A stretch of DNA of 19,638 nucleotides, taken from a virus. Lineage: Duplodnaviria > Heunggongvirae > Uroviricota > Caudoviricetes. The number at the start of each line of letters is the position of its first letter. The first letter of the stretch is position 1. Positions 358 through 19,638 of this stretch are shown here, one piece after another. Made by a program: the position numbers and the translations under genes. Under the pieces are notes generated by a model that had not been told where the DNA came from, did not search any database, and was given only the letters and a program-made list of their open reading frames with translations. Location: positions 1 through 19,638 of the IMG/VR virus record IMGVR_UViG_2695420718_000005, one strand, 5' to 3'.

Positions 358-362
358 TGAAA

Positions 363-1952: not shown

Positions 1953-1972
1953 GATTCTTGATAGGTACACAC
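1931..1972. promoter_or_regulatory. Perfect 12-bp inverted repeat (gtgtgtacctat ... ataggtacacac, 18-bp spacer); candidate operator
   Basis: Read directly; sits immediately 5' of the RHH gene start codon (minus strand) and overlaps the candidate rightward promoter, i.e. in the divergent control region. Confidence 0.45.
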
Positions 1973-2069
1973 CTTATCATGTTTTATTGCTATATAACAA
2001 CGCCCTGCAGTGCTCGCAACACATACAGGGCGTCTAACCACCAACGATAGCAACAGTATCGAGGTAGCT

Positions 2070-2273: not shown

Positions 2274-2451
2274 AACCTTCCGTGTATTTGCCCGAGCTGT
2301 TAACCCACTGGGCCACACAATTGGTATCACTCAGAACGTGAAGGCTGTTAATGTTCAGACGGCTATTGCTGCGGTGAGAAGCGAATCATCAGAATATGGC
2401 TTATCACAAGTCATTATTTCAGCAGTGTATGAATTAAAAGAGGTGCATTAA
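2266..2451 (+). CDS. Hypothetical small protein (61 aa)
   Basis: GTG start 6 nt after a strong AGGAGG RBS (2254-2259); stop overlaps the next start (ATGA at 2451). Confidence 0.45.
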   Translation: MLKTFRVFARAVNPLGHTIGITQNVKAVNVQTAIAAVRSESSEYGLSQVIISAVYELKEVH

Positions 2452-2642
2452 TGCAGGAAATCACATTACACGAAGCCGCTGAACGTGCGCACCAGACAGA
2501 AATTATTTGCCGCCTTCTTGAGGTATACCCGAACAAAATTACAGATGCTGATATATCCGCGCTGGCGAGCCTACTGGCGCGCCTTTCGGGAAGTGTCGCT
2601 AGTTTCCTGATTGAGGAAGAAAGTAAGCTGGTGGGGGATTAA
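2451..2642 (+). CDS. Hypothetical small protein (63 aa)
   Basis: Start overlaps the upstream stop; stop overlaps the next start; translationally coupled operon. Confidence 0.45.
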   Translation: MQEITLHEAAERAHQTEIICRLLEVYPNKITDADISALASLLARLSGSVASFLIEEESKLVGD

Positions 2643-2864
2643 ATGAATACAGAACGGGAAGTCTTTTTTAAATTGTTAGCATGTGCAGAAAGTTCATTAA
2701 CTTTAAATAATTCAGCAAAAGCAATATTAAATATGTGGCTTGATTGCATAAATGACAATGAAGATGCAAATATTGCTTATGGCCTGTTGTCACTTATTGA
2801 TGAATCAGCAGAAAAACTCAATGACGCAATAAATAGTGCCCTGCTATCAAATAAGTCGAGTTAA
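2643..2864 (+). CDS. Hypothetical small protein (73 aa), AT-rich
   Basis: ORF in the same coupled series. Confidence 0.4.
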   Translation: MNTEREVFFKLLACAESSLTLNNSAKAILNMWLDCINDNEDANIAYGLLSLIDESAEKLNDAINSALLSNKSS

Positions 2865-2881
2865 GTCGAGGAATAAATAAT

Positions 2882-3181
2882 ATGGAAATGAAAAATTCTG
2901 GCTTTATTGCCAGCGGCCCCGCTCGGCCTGAATTTATGAACGGCGATATTTACCGCGATAAATACGGCGGCACGGTAACGATTAAAGGCGTGGCAGAACG
3001 GCGCATCACTTACCGCCGTGAGGGGTATAGCTATGACTGCGTGATGCCTGTTTATCAGTTCCGGCGTGATTTTTCCCTGGTATATGCCGCACCCCGCAGT
3101 AAGCCCATCAGCAGGGAAAAAGCGCGGGGAAACATCCAGAAAATGAAAAGCATGATTAACGCATTCAGGGGCAAAAAATGA
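2882..3181 (+). CDS. Hypothetical protein (99 aa); stop overlaps the primase start
   Basis: ATG at 2882 preceded by gaggaataaataat; the stop overlaps the ATG of the 583-aa gene (ATGA at 3178-3181). Confidence 0.5.
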   Translation: MEMKNSGFIASGPARPEFMNGDIYRDKYGGTVTIKGVAERRITYRREGYSYDCVMPVYQFRRDFSLVYAAPRSKPISREKARGNIQKMKSMINAFRGKK

Positions 3182-4929: not shown

Positions 4930-4942
4930 AAAATGGCAATGG

Positions 4943-5171
4943 TTATCTACCTTGTCTACCTGACTGAAAGAAAATACTTTTATTTCAATGTATTAATGCA
5001 GGTAGATAACTATTTTTCACTGTCTACCTGTTATCTACCTTATCTACCCATTTTTGTAGACAGGTAAGGAGACGGGTAGAGATGAGGTAGACAGCTATTT
5101 GGGGCTGTCTACCTCCCTGAAACCCGCGCCATTACTGGCCTGATAACTAATCAGGTAGACAAGGTAGACAA
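4943..5171. repeat. Iteron array (about 11 copies of GGTAGAYA / TRTCTACC in both orientations) with AT-rich flanks; candidate replication origin
   Basis: Read directly: ttatctacc-ttgtctacc (4943-4960), ggtagataa (5001-5009), tgtctacc / ttatctacc / ttatctacc (5021-5048), gtagacagg (5056-5064), ggtagaca (5087-5094), tgtctacc (5106-5113), ggtagacaa-ggtagacaa (5154-5171); AT-rich stretch at 4967-4998. Confidence 0.75.
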
Positions 5172-5218
5172 GGTGGTGGTGCACAAAAAACTTTTTAAAC
5201 GAGGGGGTAAAAATAAAA

Positions 5219-5476
5219 ATGCACACATCAGGAAAACTGAACAAACATATAAAGCCACATTACCGCGCCCTTGATATGGCTGAACACTGGCTAAGGGTGG
5301 CGATTAAGGCAATAGACCGCAACGCCGGGGAAGGATACGCGAAAGCACATCCCGAACTGATAAGCGCATTCATGACAACGGCGGCTGCAAACTTTGCCAC
5401 GCTGACCGAACGGGAGATTGCTGAAGCGGAGGAAGTGACAACAATCAATATTAAGTCCGGAGAGCAGGCAGCATGA
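5219..5476 (+). CDS. Hypothetical protein (85 aa)
   Basis: ORF directly downstream of the iterons; its stop overlaps the ssb start (ATGA at 5473). Confidence 0.5.
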   Translation: MHTSGKLNKHIKPHYRALDMAEHWLRVAIKAIDRNAGEGYAKAHPELISAFMTTAAANFATLTEREIAEAEEVTTINIKSGEQAA

Positions 5477-5922
5477 CGGCGCAAATATCAGTTTACGGGC
5501 GGTTGGTGGACGACCCGCAGACAAAACAGACCAGCAAGGGCACCCCCATGACGCTGGCGCGTATGGCGGTATCACTGCCCTGCAGTCAGTCGGATGACGG
5601 TCTGGCGACGTTGTGGTTATCTGTCCTGGCGTTTGGCAGACAAGCCGACGCGCTGGCAAAGCATCACAAAGGCGAACTCCTGAGCGTGGCGGGTAACATG
5701 CAGATGAGCCAGTGGACTGGACAGAACGGCGAAACGCGGCAGGGCTGGCAGGTTATCGCAGACAGCGTAATCAGTGCGCGATCGGTGCGACCGGGCGGCA
5801 AAAAAGGCCAACAGGGGCAGGCTACTGACGCACTGAACAGAGCAAAACAACAGGCAGATCAGCAAGGAAGCCAGCCACCAGAGGGAGATAATGAGCAATG
5901 GGGAGATGATATCCCGTTTTAA
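5473..5922 (+). CDS. ssb: Single-stranded DNA-binding protein (149 aa)
   Basis: N-terminal OB-fold-like region, Gln/Gly-rich linker and the diagnostic acidic C-terminal tail ending DDIPF (E. coli SSB ends DDDIPF). Confidence 0.85.
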   Translation: MTAQISVYGRLVDDPQTKQTSKGTPMTLARMAVSLPCSQSDDGLATLWLSVLAFGRQADALAKHHKGELLSVAGNMQMSQWTGQNGETRQGWQVIADSVISARSVRPGGKKGQQGQATDALNRAKQQADQQGSQPPEGDNEQWGDDIPF

Positions 5923-5940
5923 ATATTGCCAATAAAAAAA

Positions 5941-5964
5941 GCCGGAAAAAATAAATTTTCCGGC
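5941..5964. other. Palindrome gccggaaaa-aataaa-ttttccggc between ssb and the capsid-like gene
   Basis: Perfect 9-bp arms read directly; could be a terminator-like structure or a protein-binding site. Confidence 0.3.
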
Positions 5965-6138
5965 ATGCTACATAAATCCCGACCAAAGGGAGTGAAGATA
6001 TTAACACTAATTGTCCGCACTGAAGTTGTCACCCCAAAACTTTATACAACATTGCACTCGGTTGCATGTGTTCGCATGACAAATATCGGTGATAGCATAT
6101 ATCCACAATTATTTTTAATGAATGCAAAGAGGATGCGT

Positions 6139-7179
6139 ATGGTTGATTTATATTCGCCTACCCAGCTTGTACAGGTGGTTAATGCTGTAGATGTACAAAA
6201 ACAACTAAATGCGTTGTTTACCAGTTTGTTTTTTACTCGCTCGGTAATGTTTGGATCGCGCGATATTATTCTTGATACAATCGACGATCCAAATATCCCA
6301 ATTGCAGCGTTTTGTTCTCCTATGGTGGGTAGTAAAGTTTCACGTGACGAAGGGTACGAATCAAAAACAATTCGTCCAGGCTATATGAAGCCGAAAAGCA
6401 GCATTGATCCAAATAAGTTAGCTGTGCGCCCTGCTGGTGTATCACCTGAGCAATACAATGCTTTTGGGGCGCGTAATATTAAAGTTAAACAGGCGATTGT
6501 AAATCAAGCTAAAGCTATTCGTGCACGTATTGAATGGCTTGCCGTTCAGGCAATCACAACGGGGAAAAATATCATTGAGGGCGATGGTATTGAACGTTAT
6601 GAGCTGGACTGGAATATTAAACCACAAAATATCATCACTCAGTCTGGCGGTACTGAGTGGTCAGGTAAGGATAAAGAAACTTTTGATCCAAATGATGATA
6701 TTGAGAGCTACGCAGAATTTAGTGAGGGCGTCACTAATATCATCATTATGGGCGGTAATGTATGGAAGAAATACCGTTCATTCAGAGCGATAAAAGAGGC
6801 TCTGGATACCCGTCGTGGTTCTAATTCCGAACTGGAAACGGCCCTTAAAGACCTTGGTGATTCGGTGAGTTTTAAAGGATATATGGGCGATGTTGCGATT
6901 GTTGTTTACAGCGGGCGTTATACCGACGAGGACGGAACTGAAAAACATTTCCTTGATCCTGATTTGATGGTGCTTGGCAATACGGCTCTTCAGGGGATTG
7001 TCGCCTATGGCGGTATTCAGGATCCGGAGCTAATCCGAATGGGGCTGACTAAAGCCGAACTTGCACCGAAAAACTATATTGTGCCTGGTGATCCGGCTAT
7101 TGAATATGTGCAGACACATTCAGCACCACAGCCAATACCGGCCCGCATCAATCGTTTTGTTACCGTTCGCATTGGCTAA
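6139..7179 (+). CDS. Major capsid protein, diverged homologue of lambda gpE (347 aa from the RBS-preceded ATG)
   Basis: Segments PGYMKPK, ITQSGGTEWSGKDKETFDPNDDIESYA and LDTRRGSNSELETALKDLGDSVSFKGYMGDVAIVVYSG align with remembered lambda E; AAAGAGGA RBS before the ATG at 6139. The longer ORF from 5926 has no homology in its extension. Confidence 0.8.
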   Translation: MVDLYSPTQLVQVVNAVDVQKQLNALFTSLFFTRSVMFGSRDIILDTIDDPNIPIAAFCSPMVGSKVSRDEGYESKTIRPGYMKPKSSIDPNKLAVRPAGVSPEQYNAFGARNIKVKQAIVNQAKAIRARIEWLAVQAITTGKNIIEGDGIERYELDWNIKPQNIITQSGGTEWSGKDKETFDPNDDIESYAEFSEGVTNIIIMGGNVWKKYRSFRAIKEALDTRRGSNSELETALKDLGDSVSFKGYMGDVAIVVYSGRYTDEDGTEKHFLDPDLMVLGNTALQGIVAYGGIQDPELIRMGLTKAELAPKNYIVPGDPAIEYVQTHSAPQPIPARINRFVTVRIG

Positions 7180-7188
7180 GGGGGAGCA

Positions 7189-7530
7189 ATGGCTACTCAT
7201 TACACTGAACTCATGGCTGGCACTGAAGCACTGGTGACTACGCTGGGGATATTTTCAGCTAATAAAGGGGTAATTCCTGCATTTACGCCACTGATGCAGG
7301 AAGATGCAACAGGTGCACTGGTGGTATGGGATGGTTCGAGCGTAGGTAAAGCGGTTTATGTTTCCGCTGTACAAATCGACACCGCGAAAAAAACACAGGC
7401 TCAGGTCTATAAGACAGGTGTCTTAAATGTTGATGCTCTGAACTGGCCTGAGTCTGTAAAAGAACTGTCAGTAAAGATTGCAGCGTTTGTTGGCTCAGGT
7501 ATTTCTGTTCAGCCGCTGGCTCGTGTGTAA
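7189..7530 (+). CDS. Head decoration protein, lambda gpD-like (113 aa)
   Basis: PAFTPLMQEDATGALVVWDG, YKTGVLNVDALNWPE and AAFVGSGISV align with remembered lambda D (TPLMLDTSSRKLVAWDG, YKSGTFRYEDVLWPE, TAFAGTAISI); GGGGGAG RBS. Confidence 0.75.
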   Translation: MATHYTELMAGTEALVTTLGIFSANKGVIPAFTPLMQEDATGALVVWDGSSVGKAVYVSAVQIDTAKKTQAQVYKTGVLNVDALNWPESVKELSVKIAAFVGSGISVQPLARV

Positions 7531-7541
7531 AGGGGGATACA

Positions 7542-7925
7542 ATGCAAAATGATTACAATGACCTTAAGCCAATTGCCGAAATGATGTACCCGAATCCAGC
7601 TGTAGAGGAATTAAAAGCTATCGCTGACAAAATGTGTTTAAGCGAGCGCCTTGTTGATATGAATCAGGTGATGGAAATTACAACCCTGAGTCGGCGTACA
7701 CTGCTAAACCTTGAGGCTAGTGGAGAGTTCCCGGAGCGTGTGCAGGTTACGGAAGGGCGTAAGGCCTGGTATTTAAGTGAAGTGATCGACTGGATAAATA
7801 ATATTCCTCGCGCTTCTGAATATTGCCGCGTACCTGTCCCAAAAAAGCCAGATGCGGCGCTATGCCTCAAGATTGAGCGTGTACGCCGCAATGCACGGGA
7901 TGGTCGCTATAAGCTGATTGGTTGA
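7542..7925 (+). CDS. AlpA-like HTH DNA-binding protein with N-terminal extension (127 aa)
   Basis: MEITTLSRRTLLNLEASGEFPERVQV...WYLSEVIDWI fits the AlpA-type HTH pattern; AGGGGGA RBS; located immediately upstream of the cos site. Confidence 0.6.
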   Translation: MQNDYNDLKPIAEMMYPNPAVEELKAIADKMCLSERLVDMNQVMEITTLSRRTLLNLEASGEFPERVQVTEGRKAWYLSEVIDWINNIPRASEYCRVPVPKKPDAALCLKIERVRRNARDGRYKLIG

Positions 7926-7933
7926 TGAAATTA

Positions 7934-7962
7934 GGGCCCGCTCTGGCTGGCGGGTCCTTTCC
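7934..7962 (+). terminator. Candidate intrinsic terminator (gggcccgc-tctggctg-gcgggtcc followed by tttcc)
   Basis: GC-rich imperfect hairpin followed by a short T-run, just after the 127-aa gene stop. Confidence 0.4.
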
Positions 7963-7981
7963 GGCGATCTGACAGGCTACG

Positions 7982-7993
7982 GGGCGTCAGGCG
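7982..7993. other. cosN-equivalent (gggcgtcaggcg), divergent from lambda cosN GGGCGGCGACCT
   Basis: Position and flanks (acg before, cgcgg-attttcgc after) correspond to the lambda cohesive-end region as I recall it; 5 of 12 positions differ. Confidence 0.55.
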
Positions 7994-7998
7994 CGCGG

Positions 7999-8170
7999 AT
8001 TTTCGCTATTTATGAAAATTTTCCGGTTTAAGGCGTTTCCGTTCTTCTTCGTCGTAACTTAATGTTTTTATTTAAAATACCCCCTGAAAAGAAAGGAAAC
8101 GACAGGTGCTGAAAGCGAGCTTTTTGGCCTCTGTCGTTTCCTTTCTCTGTTTTTGTCCGTGGAATGAACA
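7999..8170 (+). promoter_or_regulatory. Lambda-type cosB with Nu1-binding repeats R3, R2, R1 (CGTTTCC / GGAAACG)
   Basis: attttcgctatttatgaaaattttccggtttaaggcgtttccgttcttcttcg ... aaaggaaacgacaggtg ... ctgtcgtttcctttctc matches my recollection of the lambda left end nearly base for base; three CGTTTCC-type repeats read directly. Confidence 0.75.
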
Positions 8171-8722
8171 ATGGAAGTCAACAAAAAGCAGCTGGCTGAC
8201 ATTTTCGGTGCGAGTATCCGTACCATTCAGAACTGGCAGGAACAGGGAATGCCCGTTCTGCGAGGCGGTGGCAAGGGTAATGAGGTGCTTTATGACTCTG
8301 CCGCCGTTATAAGATGGTATGCCGAAAGGGATGCTGAAATTGAGAACGAAAAGCTGCGCCGGGAAGTTGAAGAACTGCGGCAGGCCAGCGAGACAGATCT
8401 CCAGCCAGGGACTATTGAGTACGAACGCCATCGACTTACGCGTGCGCAGGCCGACGCACAGGAACTGAAGAATGCCAGCGAAACAGGTGAGGTAATTGAC
8501 ACTGCATTTGCGACTTATGCCTTGTCGAAATTAACTGGGGAAGTTGGAGCAATCATTGATAGTCTTCCACTTGCGATCTGTCGACAGTTTCCTGGCATGG
8601 AAAAACGGTATCAGGACTTCATTAAGATGGAGGTCAGTAAAGCATTTATTCGAGCTTACCAGATCTCAGATAACATTCCAGATATGGCTGAAAGGTATAT
8701 CAAGGATAATCAGCGAAGTTAA
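8171..8722 (+). CDS. Nu1: Terminase small subunit Nu1 (183 aa); N-terminal DNA-binding half lambda-like, C-terminal half diverged
   Basis: MEVNKKQLADIFGASIRTIQNWQEQGMPVLRGGGKGNEVLYDSAAV... is essentially lambda Nu1; the C-terminal ~70 aa are homologous but diverged. No gpA gene follows. Confidence 0.9.
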   Translation: MEVNKKQLADIFGASIRTIQNWQEQGMPVLRGGGKGNEVLYDSAAVIRWYAERDAEIENEKLRREVEELRQASETDLQPGTIEYERHRLTRAQADAQELKNASETGEVIDTAFATYALSKLTGEVGAIIDSLPLAICRQFPGMEKRYQDFIKMEVSKAFIRAYQISDNIPDMAERYIKDNQRS

Positions 8723-8778
8723 AACAAATGAAACCATAGGTAGGAAGAGTGCTTAGGTGGTTCTTTGTTGCTTAAAAG

Positions 8779-8810
8779 TCGCCAGTAAAACTGGCGATAG
8801 ATTTTATTTG
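8779..8810. terminator. Hairpin tcgccag-taaaa-ctggcga followed by tagattttatttg; candidate bidirectional terminator between Nu1 and the convergent 301-aa gene
   Basis: Perfect 7-bp stem and T-rich tract read directly; lies between convergent gene ends. Confidence 0.45.
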
Positions 8811-8828
8811 TCAAAAGCATTTGACCTT

Positions 8829-9734
8829 TTAAGGTAGTGGTACTATGGATATTTTTCTGTCGTTCCCAAATGAACTTTTAAATAATTTCGCTCTTGGATA
8901 CATTTTAACTAGTGATGCGACTTCATCGAACTCGCTGGCATCAAAAAGAGGACCAAGTATTACAGATTTTAACTCAAAAGGGTGAAATTTTAAGTCGCTA
9001 TATTGACCAGTGCTATTTGGCCTAGCGTAGGTTGAAATTCTCCACTCTCTTTCATATGCCCATTCTTCTGTTTTTATGAATATTATCTCATTATTGATAT
9101 ATTCAATTGACTTATTGTCTGGCATGAAAAGCAACTCGGCCATCCCTTCAGCAGTGTGAGTTAGAGGCATTTCATCTGTGTATTTCATAGGTTTGGCTAT
9201 TAACCAAGCGCTATCCAGAAAGTCTACACAATCAAATTCGATAACTATACCTTTATATTTATCGGCATAGTGATTCCACATAGGAGTGATTATAGGGCTC
9301 TCAGATAAACACAAAATCCTTCTGTTATTAAGCATTCCTCGCCAGACATCTTTCATTTCTTGTATTGCCGCAGGAGCGCCAATCCCAACTGGTGGAATGT
9401 TTACCATTTCTTGAAATCTTTCAATTAATCCTGCGGGTATGCCTAAAGGAAATGACTTTTGGAAATCACTTAGCATTGTTCTAATTCTAGGGTTTAAATT
9501 TTGTATGTCTTCTCTGGGGGTAATCAACTCCGCTATTAACTTGCGGGCTAAAGCTTTGCCAATATTAATTTCGTTAATACCAGGCATAACTTCTCTTGGA
9601 ACATCAAAAGGGTCATTAAATAGGACCGGAGAACTCCATCTAAGGCTGCATGAATCAAGAACAATCTTCGCGGTATTCAACGACATATACTTATAAAATG
9701 TTGAGCGTTCATGCATTCTGTTGGGTGAGCGCAT
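8829..9734 (-). CDS. Hypothetical 301-aa protein, AT-rich moron; motif pattern reminiscent of the DUF2971 family (unverified recollection)
   Basis: Long minus-strand ORF, strongly AT-rich relative to the flanking lambda genes; motifs FYKYMSL, FNDPFD, RILCLSESPIITPMWNHYADKYKGIVIEFD. It occupies the position where lambda A through Nu3, D and E-5' would be. Confidence 0.7.
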   Translation of the reverse strand: MRSPNRMHERSTFYKYMSLNTAKIVLDSCSLRWSSPVLFNDPFDVPREVMPGINEINIGKALARKLIAELITPREDIQNLNPRIRTMLSDFQKSFPLGIPAGLIERFQEMVNIPPVGIGAPAAIQEMKDVWRGMLNNRRILCLSESPIITPMWNHYADKYKGIVIEFDCVDFLDSAWLIAKPMKYTDEMPLTHTAEGMAELLFMPDNKSIEYINNEIIFIKTEEWAYEREWRISTYARPNSTGQYSDLKFHPFELKSVILGPLFDASEFDEVASLVKMYPRAKLFKSSFGNDRKISIVPLP

Positions 9735-9870
9735 AGATTCCTCTTGTTAAATGAGTGATGGTTTTCATCCATGTATTGCACGTTGTATTGCATTCAAGGA
9801 TTTTCCATTTCAATTCTATAGCTAAAACGTAATCAAATCATTCACATCCTTTCATATTTGACTCATGTAG

Positions 9871-10659
9871 CCGAAGCATGAGGTGAATCCGCAGATGACC
9901 CTGCGTCGCCTGCCGGATGAAGATCCGCAGAATCTGGCGGACCCGGCTTACCGCCGCCGTCGCATCATCATGCAGAACATGCGAGACGAAGAGCTGGCCA
10001 TTGCTCAGGTCGAAGAGATGCAGGCAGTTTCTGCTGTGCTTAAGGGCAAATACACCATGACCGGTGAAGCCTTCGATCCGGTTGAGGTGGATATGGGCCG
10101 CAGTGCGGCGAACAACATCACACAGTCCGGTGGTACGGAGTGGAGCAAGCGTGACAAGTCCACGTATGACCCGACCGACGATATCGAAGCCTATGCGCTG
10201 AACGCCAGCGGAGTGGTGAATATCATCGTGTTTGATCCGAAAGGCTGGGCGCTGTTCCGTTCCTTCAAAGCCGTCAAGGAGAAGCTGGATACCCGTCGCG
10301 GCTCTAATTCCGAGCTGGAGACAGCGGTAAAAGACCTGGGCGAAGCGGTGTCCTATAAGGGGATGTATGGCGATACGGCGATCGTCGTGTATTCCGGACA
10401 GTACGTGGAAAACGACGTCAAAAAGAACTTCCTTCCGGACAACACGATGGTGCTGGGGAACTCTCAGGCACGCGGTCTGCGCACCTATGGCTGCATTCAG
10501 GATGCGGACGCACAGCGCGAAGGTATTAACGCCTCTGCCCGCTACCCGAAAAACTGGGTGACCACCGGCGATCCGGCGCGTGAGTTCACCATGATTCAGT
10601 CAGCACCGCTGATGCTGCTGGCTGACCCTGATGCGTTCGTGTCCGTACAACTGGCGTAA
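9871..10659 (+). pseudogene. E: 5'-truncated major capsid gene E (lambda gpE residues ~90 to end)
   Basis: Translation PKHEVNPQMTLRRLPDEDPQNLADPAYRRRRIIMQNMRDEEL... matches lambda E almost residue for residue; homology stops abruptly near 9866-9870, where an in-frame TAG (9868-9870) is present; no proper N-terminus or RBS. Confidence 0.8.
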
Positions 10660-10700
10660 TCATGGCCCTTCGGGGCCATTTTCTCTCTGTGGAGGAGTCT

Positions 10701-11096
10701 ATGACGAAAGATGAACTGATTGCCCGTCTTCAGGTGCTGGGTGAGCAACTGAACCGTGATGTCAGCCTGACGGGGACGAAAGAAGAACTGGTGCTCCGTG
10801 TGGCAGAGCTGGAAGAGGAGCTTGATGACACGGATGACGCTGCCGGTCAGGACACATCTGTCAGCCCGGAAAATGCGCTGACCGGACATGAAAATGAGGT
10901 TGTATCAGCGCAGCCGGATACCGTGACTGATACGGCTGATCTGGTCACGGTTGTGGCACTGGTGACGCTGCATACTGATGCACTTCACGCCACGCGGGAT
11001 GAGGCTGTGGCATTTGTGCTGCCGGGAACGGCGTTCCGTGTCTCTGCCGGTGTGTCAGCTGAAATGACAGAGCGCGGCCTGGCCAGAATGCAATAA
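10701..11096 (+). CDS. FI: DNA-packaging protein FI (132 aa)
   Basis: MTKDELIARL...ERGLARMQ matches lambda FI; GGAGGA RBS before the ATG at 10701. The ORF-track start at 10662 is an upstream extension. Confidence 0.9.
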   Translation: MTKDELIARLQVLGEQLNRDVSLTGTKEELVLRVAELEEELDDTDDAAGQDTSVSPENALTGHENEVVSAQPDTVTDTADLVTVVALVTLHTDALHATRDEAVAFVLPGTAFRVSAGVSAEMTERGLARMQ

Positions 11097-11107
11097 CGGG
11101 AGGCGCT

Positions 11108-11461
11108 GTGGCTGATTTCGATAACCTGTTCGATGCTGCCATTGCCCGCGCCGATGAAACGATACGCGGGTACATGGGAACGTCAGCCACCATGACATCC
11201 GGTGAGCAGTCCGGTGCTGTGATACGTGGTGTTTTTGATGACCCTGAAAATATCAGCTATGCCGGACAGGGCGTGCGCGTTGAAGGCTCCAGCCCGTCCC
11301 TGTTTGTCCGGACTGATGATGTGCGGCAGCTGCGGCGCGGCGACACGCTGACCATCGGTGAGGAAAACTTCTGGATAGACCGGATTTCGCCGGATGATGG
11401 CGGAAGCTGTCATCTCTGGCTTGGGCGGGGCGTACCGCCTGCCGTTAACCGTCGCCGCTGA
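11108..11461 (+). CDS. FII: Head-tail joining protein FII (117 aa)
   Basis: MADFDNLFDAAIARADETIRGYMGTSAT... matches lambda FII; GTG start after GGGAGG. Confidence 0.9.
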   Translation: MADFDNLFDAAIARADETIRGYMGTSATMTSGEQSGAVIRGVFDDPENISYAGQGVRVEGSSPSLFVRTDDVRQLRRGDTLTIGEENFWIDRISPDDGGSCHLWLGRGVPPAVNRRR

Positions 11462-11472
11462 AAGGGGGATGT

Positions 11473-12051
11473 ATGGCCATAAAAGGTCTTGAGCAGGCCG
11501 TTGAAAACCTCAGTCGTATCAGCAGAGCGGCGGTGCCCGGTGCCGCCGCAATGGCCATTAACCGCGTTGCTTCATCCGCGATATCGCAGTCGGCGTCACA
11601 GGTTGCCCGTGAGACAAAGGTACGCCGGAAACTGGTAAAGGAAAGGGCCAGGCTGAAAAGGGCCACGGTCAAAAATCCGCAGGCCAGAATCAAGGTTAAC
11701 CGGGGGGATTTGCCCGTAATAAAGCTGGGTAACGCGCGGATTGTCCTGTCCCGACGCAGGCGTCGTAAAAAGGGGCAGCGTTCAGCCCTGAAAGGTGGCG
11801 GCAGCGTGCTTGTGGTGGGAAACCGTCGTATTCCCGGCGCGTTTATTCAGCAACTGAAACATGGCCGCTGGCATGTCATGCAGCGTGTGGCCGGGAAAAA
11901 CCGTTACCCCATTGATGTGGTGAAAATCCCGATGGCGGTGCCGCTGACCACGGCGTTTAAACAGAATATTGAGCGGATACGGCGTGAGCGTCTTCCGAAA
12001 GAGCTGGGCTATGCGCTGCAGCATCAACTGAGGATGGTAATAAAGCGATGA
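11473..12051 (+). CDS. Z: Tail terminator/completion protein Z (192 aa)
   Basis: MAIKGLEQAVENLSRIS... matches lambda Z; AAGGGGGA RBS. Confidence 0.9.
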   Translation: MAIKGLEQAVENLSRISRAAVPGAAAMAINRVASSAISQSASQVARETKVRRKLVKERARLKRATVKNPQARIKVNRGDLPVIKLGNARIVLSRRRRRKKGQRSALKGGGSVLVVGNRRIPGAFIQQLKHGRWHVMQRVAGKNRYPIDVVKIPMAVPLTTAFKQNIERIRRERLPKELGYALQHQLRMVIKR

Positions 12052-12443
12052 AACATACTGAACTCCGTGCAGCCGTACTGGATGCACTGGAGAAGCATGA
12101 CACCGGGGCGACGCTTTTTGATGGTCGCCCCGCTGTTTTTGATGAGGAAGATTTTCCGGCAATTGCCGTTTATCTCACCGGCGCTGAATACACGGGCGAA
12201 GAGCTGGACAGCGATACCTGGCAGGCGGAGCTGCATATTGAAGTTTTCCTGCCTGCTCAGGTGCCGGATTCAGAGCTGGATGCGTGGATGGAGTCCCGGA
12301 TTTATCCGGTGATGAGCGATATCCCGGCACTGTCAGATTTGATCACCAGTATGGTGGCCAGTGGCTATGACTACCGGCGCGACGATGATGCGGGCCTGTG
12401 GAGTTCAGCCGATCTGACTTATGTCATTACCTATGAAATGTGA
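12048..12443 (+). CDS. U: Tail tube terminator protein U (131 aa)
   Basis: [22 protein letters not shown]... matches lambda U; start overlaps the Z stop. Confidence 0.9.
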
Positions 12444-12450
12444 GGACGCT

Positions 12451-13191
12451 ATGCCTGTACCAAATCCTACAATGCCGGTGAAAGGTGCCGGGACCACCCT
12501 GTGGGTTTATAAGGGGAGCGGTGACCCTTATGCGAACCCGCTTTCAGACGTTGACTGGTCGCGTCTGGCAAAAGTTAAAGACCTGACGCCCGGCGAACTG
12601 ACCGCTGAGTCCTATGACGACAGCTATCTCGATGATAAAGATGCAGACTGGACTGCGACCGGGCAGGGGCAGAAATCTGCCGGAGATACCAGCTTCACGC
12701 TGGCGTGGATGCCCGGAGAGCAGGGGCAGCAGGCGCTGCTGGCGTGGTTTAATGAAGGTGATACCCGTGCCTATAAAATCCGCTTCCCGAACGGCACGGT
12801 CGATGTGTTCCGTGGCTGGGTCAGCAGTATCGGTAAGGCGGTGACGGCGAAGGAAGTGATTACCCGCACGGTGAAGGTCACCAATGTGGGACGTCCGTCG
12901 ATGGCAGAAGATCGCAGCACGGTAACAGCGGCAACCGGCATGACCGTGACGCCTGCCAGCACTTCGGTGGTGAAAGGGCAGAGCACCACGCTGACCGTGG
13001 CATTCCAGCCGGAAGGCGCAACCGACAAGAGCTTCCGTGCGGTGTCAGCGGATAAAACAAAAGCCACCGTGTCGGTCAGTGGTATGACCATCACCGTGAA
13101 TGGCGTTGCTGCAGGCAAGGTCAACATTCCGATTGTATCCGGTAATGGTGAGTTTGCTGCGGTTGCAGAAATCACCGTCACCGCCAGTTAA
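12451..13191 (+). CDS. V: Major tail tube protein V (246 aa)
   Basis: [22 protein letters not shown]... matches lambda V including the C-terminal Ig-like region; GAGGA RBS before the ATG at 12451. The ORF-track start at 12421 is rejected. Confidence 0.9.
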
Positions 13192-13206
13192 TCCGGAGAG
13201 TCAGAG

Positions 13207-13629
13207 ATGTTCCTGAAAACCGAATCATTTGAACATAACGGTGTGACCGTCACGCTTTCTGAACTGTCAGCCCTGCAGCGTATTGAGCATCTCGCCCTGA
13301 TGAAACGGCAGGCAGAACAGGCGGAGTCAGACAGCAACCGGAAGTTTACTGTGGAAGACGCCATCAGAACCGGCGCGTTTCTGGTGGCGATGTCCCTGTG
13401 GCATAACCATCCGCAGAAGACAAAGCAGCCTTCCATGAATGAAGCCGTTAAACAGATTGAGCAGGAAGTGCTTACCACCTGGCCCACAGAGGCAATTTCT
13501 CATGCTGAAAACGTGGTGTACCGGCTGTCTGGTATGTATGAGTTTGTGGTGAATAATGCCCCTGAACAGGCAGAGGACGCCGGGCCCGCAGAGCCTGTTT
13601 CTGCGGGAAAGTGTTCGACGGTGAGCTGA
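13207..13629 (+). CDS. G: Tail assembly chaperone G (140 aa)
   Basis: MFLKTESFEHNGVTVTLSELSALQRIEHL... matches lambda G. Confidence 0.9.
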   Translation: MFLKTESFEHNGVTVTLSELSALQRIEHLALMKRQAEQAESDSNRKFTVEDAIRTGAFLVAMSLWHNHPQKTKQPSMNEAVKQIEQEVLTTWPTEAISHAENVVYRLSGMYEFVVNNAPEQAEDAGPAEPVSAGKCSTVS

Positions 13630-14045
13630 GTTTTGCCCTGAAACTGGCGCGTGAGATGGGGCGACCCGACTGGCGTGCCATGCTTGCCGGGATGTCATCC
13701 ACGGAGTATGCCGACTGGCACCGCTTTTACAGTACCCATTATTTTCATGATGTTCTGCTGGATATGCACTTTTCCGGGCTGACGTACACCGTGCTCAGCC
13801 TGTTTTTCAGCGATCCGGATATGCATCCGCTGGATTTCAGTCTGCTGAACCGGCGCGAGGCTGACGAAGAGCCTGAAGATGATGTGCTGATGCAGAAAGC
13901 GGCAGGGCTTGCCGGAGGTGTCCGCTTTGGCCCGGACGGGAATGAAGTTATCCCCGCTTCCCCGGATGTGGCGGACATGACGGAGGATGACGTAATGCTG
14001 ATGACAGTATCAGAAGGGATCGCAGGAGGAGTCCGGTATGGCTGA
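13207..14045 (+). CDS. G-T: G-T tail assembly chaperone fusion produced by -1 frameshift (T portion 13611..14045)
   Basis: The -1 frame ORF after the slippery site encodes ...FDGELSFALKLAREMGRPDWRAMLAGMSSTEYADWHRFY..., matching the lambda T region; no independent RBS or start. Confidence 0.8.
13605..13611 (+). promoter_or_regulatory. Programmed -1 ribosomal frameshift slippery heptamer G GGA AAG (G to G-T)
   Basis: GGGAAAG read in the G frame near the 3' end of G; the -1 frame continues as the T ORF to 14045. Confidence 0.8.
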
Positions 14046-17000
14046 ACCTGTAGGCGATCTGGTCGTTGATTTGAGTCTGGATGCGGCCAGATTTGACGAG
14101 CAGATGGCCAGAGTCAGGCGTCATTTTTCCGGTACGGAAAGTGATGCGAAAAGAACAGCGGCAGTCGTTGAACAGTCGCTGAGCCGACAGGCGCTGGCTG
14201 CACAGAAAGCGGGGATTTCCGTCGGGCAGTATAAAGCCGCCATGCGTATGCTGCCTGCACAGTTCACCGACGTGGCCACGCAGCTTGCAGGCGGGCAAAG
14301 TCCGTGGCTGATCCTGCTGCAACAGGGGGGGCAGGTGAAGGACTCCTTCGGCGGGATGATCCCCATGTTCAGGGGGCTTGCCGGTGCGATCACCCTGCCG
14401 ATGGTGGGGGCCACCTCGCTGGCGGTGGCGACCGGTGCGCTGGCGTATGCCTGGTATCAGGGCAACTCAACCCTGTCCGATTTCAACAAAACGCTGGTCC
14501 TTTCCGGTCATCAGTCGGGTCTGACGGCAGATCGTATGCTGGTCCTGTCCAGAGCCGGGCAGGCGGCAGGGCTGACGTTTAACCAGACCAGCGAGTCACT
14601 CAGCGCACTGGTTAAGGCGGGGGTAAGCGGTGAGGCTCAGATTGCGTCCATCAGCCAGAGTGTGGCGCGTTTCTCCTCTGCATCCGGCGTGGAGGTGGAC
14701 AAGGTCGCTGAAGCCTTCGGGAAGCTGACCACAGACCCGACGTCGGGGCTGACGGCGATGGCACGCCAGTTCCATAACGTGACGGCGGAGCAGATTGCGT
14801 ATGTTGCTCAGTTGCAGCGTTCCGGCGATGAAGCCGGGGCATTGCAGGCGGCGAACGAGGCCGCAACGAAAGGGTTTGATGACCAGACCCGCCGCCTGAA
14901 AGAGAACATGGGCACGCTGGAGACCTGGGCAGACAGGACTGCGCGGGCATTCAAATCCATGTGGGATGCGGTGCTGGATATTGGTCGTCCTGATACCGCG
15001 CAGGAGATGCTGATTAAGGCAGAGGCTGCGTTTAAGAAAGCAGACGACATCTGGAATCTGCGCAAGGATGATTATTTTGTTAACGATGAAGCGCGGGCGC
15101 GTTACTGGGATGATCGTGAAAAGGCCCGTCTTGCGCTTGAAGCCGCCCGAAAGAAGGCTGAGCAGCAGACTCAACAGGACAAAAATGCGCAGCAGCAGAG
15201 CGATACCGAAGCGTCACGGCTGAAATATACCGAAGAGGCGCAGAAGGCTTACGAACGGCTGCAGACACCGCTGGAGAAATATACCGCCCGTCAGGAAGAA
15301 CTGAACAAGGCACTGAAAGACGGGAAAATCCTGCAGGCAGATTACAACACGCTGATGGCGGCGGCGAAAAAGGATTATGAAGCGACGCTGAAAAAGCCGA
15401 AACAGTCCGGCGTGAAAGTGTCTGCGGGCGATCGTCAGGAAGACAGTGCTCATGCTGCCCTGCTGACGCTTCAGGCAGAACTCCGGACGCTGGAGAAGCA
15501 TGCCGGAGCAAATGAGAAAATCAGCCAGCAGCGCCGGGATTTGTGGAAGGCGGAGAGTCAGTTCGCGGTACTGGAGGAGGCGGCGCAACGTCGCCAGCTG
15601 TCTGCACAGGAGAAATCCCTGCTGGCGCATAAAGATGAGACGCTGGAGTACAAACGCCAGCTGGCTGCACTTGGCGACAAGGTTACGTATCAGGAGCGCC
15701 TGAACGCGCTGGCGCAGCAGGCGGATAAATTCGCACAGCAGCAACGGGCAAAACGGGCCGCCATTGATGCGAAAAGCCGGGGGCTGACTGACCGGCAGGC
15801 AGAACGGGAAGCCACGGAACAGCGCCTGAAGGAACAGTATGGCGATAATCCGCTGGCGCTGAATAACATCATGTCAGAGCAGAAAAAGACCTGGGCGGCT
15901 GAAGACCAGCTTCGCGGGAACTGGATGGCAGGCCTGAAGTCCGGCTGGAGTGAGTGGGAAGAGAGCGCCACGGACAGTATGTCGCAGGTAAAAAGTGCAG
16001 CCACGCAGACCTTTGATGGTATTGCACAGAATATGGCGGCGATGCTGACCGGCAGTGAGCAGAACTGGCGCAGCTTCACCCGTTCCGTGCTGTCCATGAT
16101 GACAGAAATTCTGCTTAAGCAGGCAATGGTGGGGATTGTCGGGAGTATCGGCAGCGCCATTGGCGGGGCTGTTGGTGGCGGCGCATCCGCGTCAGGCGGT
16201 ACAGCCATTCAGGCCGCTGCGGCGAAATTCCATTTTGCAACCGGAGGATTTACGGGAACCGGCGGCAAATATGAGCCAGCGGGGATTGTTCACCGTGGTG
16301 AGTTTGTCTTCACGAAGGAGGCAACCAGCCGGATTGGCGTGGGGAATCTTTACCGGCTGATGCGCGGCTATGCCACCGGCGGTTATGTCGGTACACCGGG
16401 CAGCATGGCAGACAGCCGGTCGCAGGCGTCCGGGACGTTTGAGCAGAATAACCATGTGGTGATTAACAAAGGACTGATGGCGATGGCGCGCCAGTTCCGT
16501 AACGTGACGGCAGAGCAGATTGCGTATGTTGCACAGCTGCAGCGTTCCGGAGACGAGGCCGGGGCATTGCAGGCGGCGAACGATATCGCCACGAAAGGCT
16601 TTGATGAGCAGACCCGTCGCCTGAAAGAAAACATGGGAACACTGGAGACCTGGGCGGATAAAACAGGGAAGGCATTCAAATCGATGTGGGATGCCATTCT
16701 GGATATCGGTCGTCCTGAATCCTCAGCGGATATGCTCGCCAGTGCGCAGAAGGCATTTGATGAGGCGGATAAAAAATGGCAGTGGTACCAGAGCCGGAGC
16801 CAGCGCCGGGGAAAGACCTCCTCTTTTCGTGCGAACCTTCAGGGGGCATGGGATGACAGGGAAAATGCCCGTCTGGGTCTGGCAGCGGCCACGCTGCAGT
16901 CGGATATGGAAAAAGCCGGTGAACTGGCGGCAAGGGACCGGGCTGAGCGTGAGGCGTCACAGCTGAAGTATACCGGAGAGGCGCAGAAGGCGTATGAGCG

Positions 17001-18336
17001 CCTGCAGACGCCGCTGGATAAATATACCGCCCGTCAGAAAGAGCTGAATAAGGCCCTGAAAGACGGAAAAATCCTGCAGGCGGATTACAACACGCTGATG
17101 GCGTCGGCAAAAAAGGATTATGAATCGACGCTGAAAAAGCCGTCCGGTGTGAAGGTGTCTGCCGGTGAGCGCCAGGAAGACCGGGCGCATGCAGCCATGC
17201 TGGCGCTTGAAACCGAGCTCAGGACGCTGGAAAAACACAGCGGTGTGAATGAGAAAATCAGCCAGCAGCGCCGGGATTTATGGGAAGCGGAAAATCAGTA
17301 TGTGGTCCTGAAAGAGGCCGCCACGAAACGGCAGTTATCTGAGCAGGAAAAATCCCTGCTGGCTCATGAGAAAGAGACGCTGGAGTACAAACGCCAGCTG
17401 GCTGAGCTGGGAGACAAGATTGAACACCAGAAGCGGCTGAATGAGCTGGCACAGCAGGCGGCGCGGTTTGAACAGCAGCAGAGCGCGAAGCAGGCGGCAA
17501 TCAGCGCAAAAGCCCGCGGCCTCACTGACCGTCAGGCGCAGCGGGAGTCGGAAGAGCAGCGCCTTCGTGAGGTGTACGGTGATAATCCGGCTGCGCTGGC
17601 GAAGGCCACATCTGCACTGAAGAACACCTGGTCTGCGGAGGAGCAGCTTCGTGGAAGCTGGATGGCCGGGATGAAGTCCGGCTGGGGCGAGTGGGCGGAA
17701 AGTGCGACGGACAGTTTTTCGCAGGTTAAAAACGCGGCCACGCAGACCTTTGACGGTATTGCACAGAATATGGCAGCGATGCTGACCGGCAGCGAACAGA
17801 ACTGGCGGGGATTCACCCGTTCGGTGCTCTCCATGCTGACAGAAATTCTGCTTAAGCAGGCAATGGTGGGGATTGTCGGGAGTATCGGCAGCGCCATTGG
17901 CGGGGCTGTTGGTGGCGGCGCATCCGCGTCAGGCGGTACAGCCATTCAGGCCGCTACGGCGAAATTCCATTTTGCAACCGGAGGATTTACGGGAACCGGC
18001 GGCAAATATGAGCCAGCGGGAATTGTTCACCGCGGTGAATTCGTCTTCACGAAGGAGGCAACCAGCCGGATTGGCGTGGGGAATCTCTACCGGCTGATGC
18101 GCGGCTATGCCACCGGCGGTTATGTCGGTACACCGGGCAGCATGGCGGACAGCCGGTCGCAGGCGTCCGGGACGTTTGAGCAGAATAACCATGTGGTGAT
18201 TAACAACGACGGCACGAACGGTCAGATAGGGCCACAGGCACTGAAGGCTGTTTATGACGTAGCCCGTAAGGCGGCAATGGATGTTGTGACCGGGCAGATG
18301 CGCGATGGTGGTCTGTTCTCCGGAGGTGGACGATGA
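14038..18336 (+). CDS. H: Tail tape measure protein H with internal in-frame tandem duplication (1432 aa)
   Basis: N-terminus MAEPVGDLVVDLSLDAARFDEQMARVRRHF... and first ~810 aa match lambda H; a second, diverged copy of the ~575-aa core follows in frame, ending with the H C-terminus ...MRDGGLFSGGGR. Confidence 0.9.
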   Translation: MAEPVGDLVVDLSLDAARFDEQMARVRRHFSGTESDAKRTAAVVEQSLSRQALAAQKAGISVGQYKAAMRMLPAQFTDVATQLAGGQSPWLILLQQGGQVKDSFGGMIPMFRGLAGAITLPMVGATSLAVATGALAYAWYQGNSTLSDFNKTLVLSGHQSGLTADRMLVLSRAGQAAGLTFNQTSESLSALVKAGVSGEAQIASISQSVARFSSASGVEVDKVAEAFGKLTTDPTSGLTAMARQFHNVTAEQIAYVAQLQRSGDEAGALQAANEAATKGFDDQTRRLKENMGTLETWADRTARAFKSMWDAVLDIGRPDTAQEMLIKAEAAFKKADDIWNLRKDDYFVNDEARARYWDDREKARLALEAARKKAEQQTQQDKNAQQQSDTEASRLKYTEEAQKAYERLQTPLEKYTARQEELNKALKDGKILQADYNTLMAAAKKDYEATLKKPKQSGVKVSAGDRQEDSAHAALLTLQAELRTLEKHAGANEKISQQRRDLWKAESQFAVLEEAAQRRQLSAQEKSLLAHKDETLEYKRQLAALGDKVTYQERLNALAQQADKFAQQQRAKRAAIDAKSRGLTDRQAEREATEQRLKEQYGDNPLALNNIMSEQKKTWAAEDQLRGNWMAGLKSGWSEWEESATDSMSQVKSAATQTFDGIAQNMAAMLTGSEQNWRSFTRSVLSMMTEILLKQAMVGIVGSIGSAIGGAVGGGASASGGTAIQAAAAKFHFATGGFTGTGGKYEPAGIVHRGEFVFTKEATSRIGVGNLYRLMRGYATGGYVGTPGSMADSRSQASGTFEQNNHVVINKGLMAMARQFRNVTAEQIAYVAQLQRSGDEAGALQAANDIATKGFDEQTRRLKENMGTLETWADKTGKAFKSMWDAILDIGRPESSADMLASAQKAFDEADKKWQWYQSRSQRRGKTSSFRANLQGAWDDRENARLGLAAATLQSDMEKAGELAARDRAEREASQLKYTGEAQKAYERLQTPLDKYTARQKELNKALKDGKILQADYNTLMASAKKDYESTLKKPSGVKVSAGERQEDRAHAAMLALETELRTLEKHSGVNEKISQQRRDLWEAENQYVVLKEAATKRQLSEQEKSLLAHEKETLEYKRQLAELGDKIEHQKRLNELAQQAARFEQQQSAKQAAISAKARGLTDRQAQRESEEQRLREVYGDNPAALAKATSALKNTWSAEEQLRGSWMAGMKSGWGEWAESATDSFSQVKNAATQTFDGIAQNMAAMLTGSEQNWRGFTRSVLSMLTEILLKQAMVGIVGSIGSAIGGAVGGGASASGGTAIQAATAKFHFATGGFTGTGGKYEPAGIVHRGEFVFTKEATSRIGVGNLYRLMRGYATGGYVGTPGSMADSRSQASGTFEQNNHVVINNDGTNGQIGPQALKAVYDVARKAAMDVVTGQMRDGGLFSGGGR
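14747..16471 (+). repeat. Tandem duplication copy 1 inside H (lambda-like allele)
   Basis: Begins ...LTAMARQFHNVTAEQIAYVAQLQRSGDEAGALQAANEAATKGFDD... and ends ...GTFEQNNHVVIN; offset to the copy-2 equivalent positions is 1725 bp (575 codons). Confidence 0.85.
16472..18196 (+). repeat. Tandem duplication copy 2 inside H (diverged allele)
   Basis: Begins ...LMAMARQFRNVTAEQIAYVAQLQRSGDEAGALQAANDIATKGFDE...; contains identical stretches of over 100 nt with copy 1 (e.g. acagaaattctgcttaagcaggcaatggtggggattgtcggg...) interspersed with diverged segments. Confidence 0.85.
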
Positions 18337-18662
18337 AAACCTTCCGCTGGAAAGTGAAACCCGGTATGGATGTGGCTTCGGCCCCTTCTGTAAGAAAGGT
18401 GCGCTTTGGTGATGGTTATTTCCAGCGAGCGCCTGCCGGGCTGAATGCCAACCTGAAAACGTACAGCGTGACGCTTTCTGTCCCCCGTGAGGAGGCCACG
18501 GTACTGGAGTCGTTTCTGGCTGAGCACGGGGGCTGGAAAGCCTTTCTGTGGACGCCGCCTTATGAGTGGCGGCAGATAAAGGTGACCTGCGCAAAATGGT
18601 CGTCGCGGGTCAGTATGCTGCGTGTTGAGTTCAGCGCAGAGTTTGAACAGGTGGTTAACTGA
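18333..18662 (+). CDS. M: Minor tail protein M (109 aa)
   Basis: MKTFRWKVKPGMDVAS... matches lambda M; start overlaps the end of H. Confidence 0.9.
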   Translation: MKTFRWKVKPGMDVASAPSVRKVRFGDGYFQRAPAGLNANLKTYSVTLSVPREEATVLESFLAEHGGWKAFLWTPPYEWRQIKVTCAKWSSRVSMLRVEFSAEFEQVVN

Positions 18663-19360
18663 TGCAGGATATCCGGCAGGAAACACTGAATGAATGCACC
18701 CGTGCGGAGCAGTCGGCCAGCGTGGTGCTCTGGGAAATCGACCTGACAGAGGTCGGTGGAGAACGTTATTTTTTCTGTAATCAGCAGAACGAAAAAGGTG
18801 AGCCGGTCACCTGGCAGGGGCGACAGTATCAGCCGTATCCCATTCAGGGGAGTGGTTTTGAACTGAATGGCAAAGGCACCAGTACGCGCCCCACGCTGGC
18901 AGTCTCTAACCTGTACGGCATGGTCACCGGGATGGCGGAAGATCTGCAGAGTCTGGTCGGCGGAACGGTGGTCCGGCGTAAGGTTTATGCCCGTTTTCTG
19001 GATGCAGTGAACTTCGTCAACGGAAACAGCGACGCCGATCCGGAGCAGGAGGTGATCAGCCGCTGGCGCATCGAGCAGTGCAGCGAACTGAGCGCGGTGA
19101 GTGCCTCCTTTGTACTGTCCACGCCGACTGAAACGGATGGCGCTGTTTTTCCGGGTCGTATCATGCTGGCCAACACCTGCACCTGGACCTATCGCGGCGA
19201 TGAGTGCGGTTATCACGGTCCGGCTGTCGCGGATGAATATGACCAGCCGACGTCCGATATCACGAAGGATAAATGCAGCAAATGCCTGAGTGGCTGTAAG
19301 TTCCGCAATAATGTCGGCAACTTTGGCGGCTTCCTTTCCATTAACAAACTTTCGCAGTAA
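18662..19360 (+). CDS. L: Minor tail protein L (232 aa)
   Basis: MQDIRQETLNECTRAEQSASVVLWEIDL... matches lambda L; TGATG overlap with the M stop. Confidence 0.9.
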   Translation: MQDIRQETLNECTRAEQSASVVLWEIDLTEVGGERYFFCNQQNEKGEPVTWQGRQYQPYPIQGSGFELNGKGTSTRPTLAVSNLYGMVTGMAEDLQSLVGGTVVRRKVYARFLDAVNFVNGNSDADPEQEVISRWRIEQCSELSAVSASFVLSTPTETDGAVFPGRIMLANTCTWTYRGDECGYHGPAVADEYDQPTSDITKDKCSKCLSGCKFRNNVGNFGGFLSINKLSQ

Positions 19361-19365
19361 ATCCC

Positions 19366-19638
19366 ATGACAGAGACAGAATCAGCGATTCTGGCGCACGC
19401 CCGGCGATGTGCGCCAGCGGAGTCGTGCGGCTTCGTGGTGAGAACGCCGGAAGGGGAAAGATATTTTCCCTGTGTGAATATCTCCGGTGAGCCGGAGGCG
19501 TATTTCCGTATGGCTCCGGAGGACTGGCTGCAGGCAGAGATGCAGGGTGAGATTGTGGCGCTGGTCCACAGTCACCCCGGTGGTCTGCCCTGGCTGAGTG
19601 AGGCCGACCGGCGGCTGCAGGTGCAGAGTGATTTGCCG
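19366..19638 (+). CDS. K: Tail assembly protein K, 5' partial (runs off the window end)
   Basis: The ATG at 19366 opens a frame encoding MTETESAILAHARRCAPAESCGFVV..., matching the lambda K N-terminus; no stop before the window end. Confidence 0.85.
   Translation, partial: MTETESAILAHARRCAPAESCGFVVRTPEGERYFPCVNISGEPEAYFRMAPEDWLQAEMQGEIVALVHSHPGGLPWLSEADRRLQVQSDLP

Follow-up and report, generated by a model that had tools for sequence, protein, structure and literature searches.

In phage lambda, small in-frame deletions and duplications in the tape-measure gene H give shorter and longer tails, respectively (Katsura & Hendrix, 1984, and also Katsura, 1987, both as cited in PMC1796659), and in phage TP901-1 a duplication within the gene for the tape-measure protein (TMP) changed tail length by about 30%, the tail becoming longer (Pedersen, 2000; Mahony, 2016; PMC5099701). 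The product of lambda H, gpH, binds gpI in the tail tip through residues 818–849 and is cut to gpH* in a Gly-rich region (PMC12617516). Here we analyze an H gene that appears to be doubled, found in a stretch of 19,638 nucleotides (nt) that makes up positions 1 to 19,638 of the IMG/VR virus record IMGVR_UViG_2695420718_000005 (hereafter the window). Over residues 1–810 its product is 99% alike to lambda gpH (853 residues), and the gene lies in the same place, between T and M and downstream of G and the G-T frameshift. It differs from gpH in reading as 1432 residues instead of 853, with residues 237–811 repeated as a second allele that is 80% identical to the first. A first-pass annotation, made from the sequence alone, had described an in-frame tandem repeat of about 1.7 kb in a 1432-residue H. 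This observation is correct for the sequence as supplied. However, the same sequence probably does not exist in any cell: the doubled H is, in our judgment, very probably an artefact of assembly or scaffolding, and the true genes are most likely an ordinary 853-residue H and an ordinary 857-residue H at two separate loci.

Two alleles of H in one open frame

Positions 14038–18336 form a single uninterrupted frame of 1432 codons, within which H residues 237–811 are present twice, both times in frame, as direct repeats with an offset of 1725–1743 nt (E = 0 when H is compared by BLAST with itself and with lambda H). The parts of this open reading frame (ORF) are the following.

14038–18336, plus strand: apparent H-H fusion ORF, an open frame with one match to TMP_2 and two matches to Tape_meas_lam_C / TIGR01541
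14038–16469, plus strand: piece 1, lambda-type allele A of H, nt 1–2432 (residues 1–810), putative 3′ end of a first contig
14746–16469, plus strand: repeat copy 1, allele A, lambda H nt 709–2432, residues 237–810
16100–16469, plus strand: near-identical block in the conserved C-terminal region of H, with its counterpart at 17837–18206 (about 98–99% identity)
16470, plus strand: a single A that is neither parent's base, putative stand-in for a one-character scaffold spacer (N)
16471–18336, plus strand: piece 2, H of the diverged allele B from nt 709 through its stop codon (native gene 2574 nt, 857 residues), putative 5′ end of a second contig
16471–18206, plus strand: repeat copy 2, allele B, ORF residues 812–1390, four residues longer than copy 1

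The two copies are about 80% identical overall, rising to about 98–99% in their final 370 nt. The first-pass annotation was right about the frame and about the repeat, but it ended the latter at 18196, about 10 nt short of the exact end at 18206. It had also mentioned identical stretches of over 100 nt, of which there is one (119 nt, beginning at 16100 and 17837), the next perfect runs being of 64, 59, 59 and 44 nt. The Gly-rich hydrophobic segment is indeed doubled, at residues 683–721 and 1262–1300. By its domains the ORF belongs to the lambda gpH family, with an N-terminal TMP_2 domain (Pfam; residues 54–256, E = 7.7e-69, one match only) and the C-terminal Tape_meas_lam_C (Pfam) and TIGR01541, each matching two stretches. 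Its position, between G / G-T with their slippery site and M, is also the one typical of the family. The length of 1432 residues falls outside the range of the natural members, which have about 850–870.

The composition of the ORF is seen from the relatives of its two halves. Piece 1 is 99.4% identical to lambda H nt 1–2432 (BLAST), in agreement with the earlier description of copy 1 and the N-terminus as lambda-like, and 100.0% identical over its 2432 nt to H in four complete Escherichia coli genomes, where the gene is in each case single-copy and of the normal 853 residues; compared with these, the left piece has no private mutations. The whole region 9869–16469 matches a complete lambdoid prophage of E. 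coli B2 at 99.97%, the match ending exactly at 16469, and the normal 853-residue protein of the B2 type, sharing the first 810 residues, is on record from 93 contigs. Piece 2 is 80% identical to lambda H nt 709–2562 (BLAST) and 99.7% identical to the H of E. coli BEC1-S17-ESBL-09, where it is part of an ordinary 857-residue H, so that copy 2 and the C-terminus do represent a diverged allele, as had been proposed. This piece is contiguous with M, L and K of its own lineage (M/L together with the allele-B H gives a 98% contiguous match in BEC1-S17-ESBL-09 and DEC5D), and this right-arm lineage shares only 90% identity with that of the left arm.

At 16469/16471 there is an abrupt switch of lineage, without homology and between pieces that overlap in gene coordinates, which is what an artefactual junction would look like. 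Judged by these alignments, the structure reads as a switch between two prophages at points 1.7 kb apart in gene coordinates, not as the duplication of one gene. An internal duplication is ruled out, all that lies left of 16469 belonging to one prophage lineage and all that lies right of 16471 to another. The first-pass annotation had already set aside a recent self-duplication, and rightly. We also considered a collapsed H (allele A nt 1–2432 followed by the C-terminus of allele B) as the true gene, but exactly this protein is absent from the collection searched.

The join and the single-N joins of other records

Across the join the window reads ...ATTAACAA-A-GGACTGATG... (join-spanning string, GTGATTAACAAAGGACTGATGG), where lambda has ...ATTAACAA-CGACGG... 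and native allele B has ...CGACGTCG-GGACTGATG... at the matching points. The native base next to the join is C in lambda and G in allele B; the window has A, and this lone base completes codon K811. There is neither homology nor microhomology between the lambda nt 2432 and allele-B nt 709 sides. A genuine duplication would be expected to show one or the other at its junction and to consist of parental bases only, and the join has neither property. It does not lie at any edge of sequence identity between alleles A and B. Beyond H nt 2373 (window 16410), the last base specific to allele A, piece 1 runs on for 59 nt to the join, which falls inside a block common to three H alleles. Given the absence of homology and the presence of a foreign base, unequal homologous recombination between two H alleles, the origin suggested in the first-pass annotation, is excluded. 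The absence of homology, together with the location away from the edges of A/B identity, also excludes a simple misassembly by repeat collapse, in which shared k-mers would have joined homologous positions and produced a hybrid of normal length.

A scan of IMG/VR by tblastn found 80 H loci, and matches longer than one gene in only two. Very informative was IMGVR_UViG_2695420863_000001 (L007; the full record, L087, has 13,073 nt), which differs from window positions 8244–18399 (10.2 kb) only at the join and in a cluster of three substitutions. The substitutions (window 11215, 11218 and 11221, in gene FII) follow one another at intervals of three bases, each in a third codon position, and may represent a small gene-conversion patch or mixed prophage copies in one assembly. 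The join of L087 reads ...AACAA CGACGGCACGAAC N CCCGACGTCG GGACTG..., that is, compared with the window it has a further 13 native bases of allele A before a literal N and a further 10 of allele B after it. It is out of frame and leaves ORFs of 820 and 619 residues. In this sister strain, allele A runs natively beyond nt 2432. About 67 nt into gene M the record has a second N, after which a third H fragment begins from nt 974 and belongs to another lambda-type allele (the single Ns stand at 8240 and 10180 of the record). The adjacency of M to this third H is biologically senseless and fits overlapping alleles placed in series. Since three coordinate-overlapping pieces follow each other with single Ns between them, L087 is to be read as a scaffold of paralogous contigs and not as a genome structure. 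A near-identical scaffold with the same abutment, a literal N and native sequence on both sides of it indicates contig concatenation in the window as well. The window keeps the position of the spacer, but its flanks are shorter than those of L087, by 13 nt on one side and 10 nt on the other. A derivation of the window join from that of L087 by one deletion was rejected, because it would take two deletions around the spacer, or a deletion plus a substitution.

We propose that the source genome would have at least two lambdoid prophages carrying different H alleles. One contig would represent the satellite-bearing, lambda-like prophage as far as H nt 2432, and another would begin at nt 709 of the H of a second prophage and continue into its M, L and K. 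Overlapping in reference coordinates, the two would have been laid in succession by a scaffolder or gap closer, with a one-character spacer that is now presumably read as the A at 16470 and with, we suppose, no read across the join. The result would be an apparent tandem repeat of 1.7 kb, in frame by a 1-in-3 chance. On this proposal, reads would link ...ATTAACAACGACGGCACG to the allele-A-specific base at window 16410. In scaffolders such as SSPACE, a negative gap estimate with no overlap to merge leads to the insertion of a single n, and such behavior would agree with two contigs that share about 1.7 kb of gene coordinates. The reading builds on the two-lineage composition of the ORF, the homology-free join and the same abutment with N in the sister scaffold. 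A warning of the first-pass annotation, that the locus is prone to assembly artefacts, has in this way become the main point and most likely the truth.

The ends of the pieces also look like those of a short-read assembly, which typically stop inside repeats: the window begins 69 nt inside the insertion sequence ISCro1, and the join lies 59 nt past the last allele-specific base. These are the sizes expected of contigs that extend by a k-mer length into repeats. Many "partial" H proteins in NCBI drafts terminate within the last 20–40 codons, indicating that contigs often break in this region of H. We tried to derive the assembler's k from the contig-end offsets (59, 69 and 72 nt; shifts of 13 vs. 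10 nt), but they are not self-consistent and are used here only qualitatively.

Similar joins were found in two other public records. In IMGVR_UViG_2671180724_000001 (L043) a single N at 4049 stands exactly at the join, where a run from H to L is followed by H from nt 272. The spurious tandem H genes and split ORFs of the IMG/VR "viral contigs" L087 and L043 come from N-joined fragments of different prophages. The longest "natural" member of the protein search, P0046 (953 residues, with two 50-residue tandem duplications), is encoded in LS992691.1 (L089, GCA_900536915.1), and single Ns lie exactly at both of its duplication joins (2952 and 3375). Each of these duplications is a 149-nt contig overlap plus one N, i.e., 150 nt, and therefore in frame. 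Eight single Ns were counted inside the P0046 gene. This protein was accordingly rejected as support for a real duplication, being itself an N-join artefact. Over the three records, all five joins between repeated H pieces (5/5) fall on single Ns.

As these cases illustrate, the H genes of co-resident lambdoid prophages are a hot spot for scaffolders that place paralogous contigs in series. Spurious "duplicated" tape-measure proteins then reach protein and viral-contig databases, P0046, UViG_2695420863_000001 and UViG_2671180724_000001 being examples, and one-character joins need to be screened out of surveys that relate tape-measure length to tail length and of scans for gene duplication. The replacement of N by a base in a pipeline erases the sole visible warning of such a join.

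Could the join be real?

Several observations weigh against a scaffold join. The base at the join is A and not N, and the window has no N anywhere. The ORF is in frame, with a single native N-terminus (residues 1–236) and a single native gpI-binding C-terminal end, and these features are exactly what a viable long tape measure would need. The contig ends are 13 and 10 nt off those of L087, so that the window is not simply L087 with N changed to A. As repeat collapse would join homologous positions, the artefact must be a join made by a scaffolder or gap closer and not an error of the assembly graph. Finally, if the join were real in both strains, majority-path extension by an assembler could in principle also yield the contig ends of L087. 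That a PICI-bearing (phage-inducible chromosomal island) lambda-like helper prophage and a second lambdoid prophage gave rise to an in-frame 1432-residue H-H by homology-independent recombination seems to us very unlikely, and the two forms that a real join could take are evaluated below.

The arms of the window come from different prophage lineages, the join has no homology and one filler base, and some illegitimate recombination events leave just this, no homology and a filler base at the join. A deletion in the chromosome or between tandem prophages, or some other illegitimate joining, could have fused a truncated prophage A to a truncated prophage B, the long ORF being in frame by chance and functionless. 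The many decay products among E. coli prophage H genes (the C3 allele, P0124 and P0133) would also agree with an unselected rearrangement of this kind. However, its breakpoints would have to lie, by coincidence, no more than 13 and 10 nt from where the contigs of the independently assembled sister scaffold end (a chance of about 1e-4, by our own estimate), allele A of the sister strain continues natively beyond nt 2432, and random breakpoints would rarely lie both in one gene and in the same orientation. We regard this origin as very unlikely.

As to the decayed H genes themselves, C3 (L001, NZ_CP010119.1, 5292–7057) has a deletion of about 800 nt and a frameshift, P0124 is a fusion of FII to the C-terminal part of H, and P0133 has a deletion between two SGLT motifs.

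A viable recombinant would involve illegitimate recombination between two co-resident or co-infecting lambdoid genomes, from H nt 2432 to H nt 709, with the in-frame product kept by selection. The protein would have one N-terminal end for chaperone binding and termination, two ruler segments and one C-terminal end for binding to the tip. The join is in frame and the ORF intact, and H, in which both breakpoints fall, is the one gene of lambda where in-frame changes of length are known to be tolerated. The duplicated part (237–811) omits the gpI-binding residues 818–849 and the N-terminal hydrophobic segment, and both unique ends of H are therefore kept; the unduplicated N-terminal 236 residues comprise TMP_2 as well as this hydrophobic segment (about 105–138). 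The surrounding tail genes are likewise intact, including the slippery site (GGGAAAG at 13605), and upstream of H the context is the normal one of lambda.

13207–13629, plus strand: tail chaperone gene G (the tail chaperones G and T match Pfam Phage_TAC_2 and Phage_tail_T)
13611–14045, plus strand: tail chaperone gene T (same pair of Pfam families)
18333–18662, plus strand: gene M, allele-B lineage (the M/L region matches Pfam Phage_min_tail)
18662–19360, plus strand: gene L, allele-B lineage (same M/L region)

The join was looked for in several collections. It was absent from the phage collection, in which 148 of 148 matches have an H of 2.56–2.58 kb, and from 5,426 complete E. coli genomes, though 3,703 of these carry one or both halves; four apparent full-length matches among the complete genomes turned out to be a deletion allele. 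It was also absent from the plasmid collection, the GTDB representatives and the JGI metagenomes, and IMG/VR contains it only in the N form. The junction has thus been observed independently in no closed genome and no other assembly apart from the sister scaffold, which has the N. At the protein level, the exact 1432-residue product is not on record, neither a two-copy relative nor a family member of similar length was found among 1.84 billion cluster representatives, and a junction-peptide search gave 51 candidates, none of them across the join. The first-pass annotation had suggested looking for other TMP genes of this length; in the best 120 of 5585 homologues none exceeds 953 residues (range 801–953), bar one V-G-T-H misfusion of 1307 residues. 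The latter (P0006) was rejected as support for a real duplication. It is labelled Trichophyton mentagrophytes and consists of a 99%-lambda V-G-T-H fusion on a 48.4-kb contig of a fungal assembly, almost certainly lambda DNA contamination annotated by a eukaryotic gene caller.

The failure to find the join in the 5,426 complete genomes and the other collections speaks against a viable recombinant, as do the near-identical scaffold with the same abutment in the wrong frame and with an N, and the lack of private mutations in the left piece. In addition, cleavage of the kind that turns gpH into gpH* would probably take place within the tail at the internal copy of the Gly-rich region, and the 370-nt near-identical blocks would be expected to allow ready loss of the duplication by homologous recombination. 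We consider this origin highly improbable. If it were nevertheless true, the gene would hold the largest tape-measure duplication to occur naturally in the lambda family and would put the ruler model to a natural test, with a gpH cleavage region inside the protein. With 17 nm of tail per 114 residues, or about 0.15 nm for each, the 579 extra residues would add about 85 nm of tail, or about 20 gpV rings, for a predicted 230–250 nm where about 150 nm is normal, i.e., tails about 1.6–1.7 times the normal length. The lambda ruler experiment would then be extended well past the engineered cases, and it would also ask if the protein tolerates its cleavage and hydrophobic region a second time, in an internal position. 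The approximately 1.7-fold longer tail foreseen in the first-pass annotation would, on the scaffold-join reading that we prefer, be the property of a protein that is most likely not real.

The neighboring satellite and comparison with known systems

The left half of the window is occupied by a PICI-type satellite (70–9868), which interrupts the lambdoid major capsid gene E at about codon 79. Identity with the uninterrupted capsid gene of E. coli B2 resumes at 9869, which corresponds to codon 79, and the 3′ remnant of E (9883–10659) matches profile positions 94–328. Both the site (E:Phage_cap_E:80) and the gene order (alpA, primase, capsid, terS) are those of a helper-embedded PICI, and the site is the one described for the arrangement of 11capE in 50icd (PMC10111431). 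Its features, and that of the window edge, are as follows.

1–69, plus strand: right end of the IS66-family ISCro1, identical (100%) to the ends of this element in more than 1000 records of E. coli
363–1712, minus strand: PD-T7-1 anti-phage defence protein, full length, 449 residues (PADLOC, E = 1e-153; no Pfam or NCBIfam match)
within 70–9868: alpA-like helix-turn-helix gene of the satellite
3178–4929: satellite primase
5926–7179: satellite capsid gene
7189–7530: satellite decoration gene
8171–8722: satellite TerS
8829–9734, minus strand: DUF2971 protein, 301 residues, at the right end of the satellite (PADLOC candidate defence family PDC-S31, E = 2.5e-32)

The PD-T7-1 ORF sits in the accessory zone of the satellite, where the relative E. 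coli 23AR0885 has DUF2971 and SWIM genes instead. The idea that the prophage is defective on account of its split capsid gene was withdrawn, the arrangement being known from helper-embedded PICIs, in which excision of the satellite restores the capsid gene (PMC10111431). All prophage and PICI relatives match only from window position 70 onward, and the ISCro1 end adjoins the last few codons of the satellite integrase gene. If the insertion is real, ISCro1 has disrupted the integrase and may have immobilised the satellite. A start 69 nt inside a multicopy element such as ISCro1 is also typical of the end of a short-read contig. Compared with 11capE in 50icd, the satellite of the window differs in having its integrase end interrupted by ISCro1; the likeness is one of genomic context and says nothing about the H join.

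As for H, one probable example of a natural duplication was found. P0043 (874 residues; L090, CATUWQ010000040.1, gene 501–3125) contains a perfect tandem copy of 63 nt (21 residues) with the 9-nt direct repeat CGCCAGCTG at its boundaries. This duplication, present on two contigs, was the only one found that is free of Ns. It looks like a genuine natural in-frame duplication of H in an E. coli prophage, with a predicted gain in tail length of about 3 nm. Like that of the window, it is an in-frame duplication in the ruler part of the H of an E. coli prophage. However, P0043 shows the signature of slippage or microhomology of a genuine duplication, and the join of the window has none of it.

A further comparison is with the engineered tape measures of lambda and TP901-1. 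If the gene of the window were real, it would resemble them as an in-frame internal duplication that keeps both termini. However, the changes engineered in lambda H are described as small (PMC1796659) and the duplication in TP901-1 changed tail length by about 30%, whereas the fusion in the window would add 68% and include the Gly-rich cleavage region. The engineered duplications are moreover one sequence doubled, and the copies in the window are two alleles. There is also a close likeness to the single-N scaffold joins of overlapping paralogous contigs in UViG_2695420863_000001, UViG_2671180724_000001 and LS992691.1. These likewise have two or three coordinate-overlapping H fragments in series, and there is no homology at the joins in them or in the window. 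The window differs in having A in place of N, flanks that are 13 and 10 nt shorter, and a frame kept by chance, but the pieces that abut in L087 are those of the window, and they do so at the same place within 13 nt.

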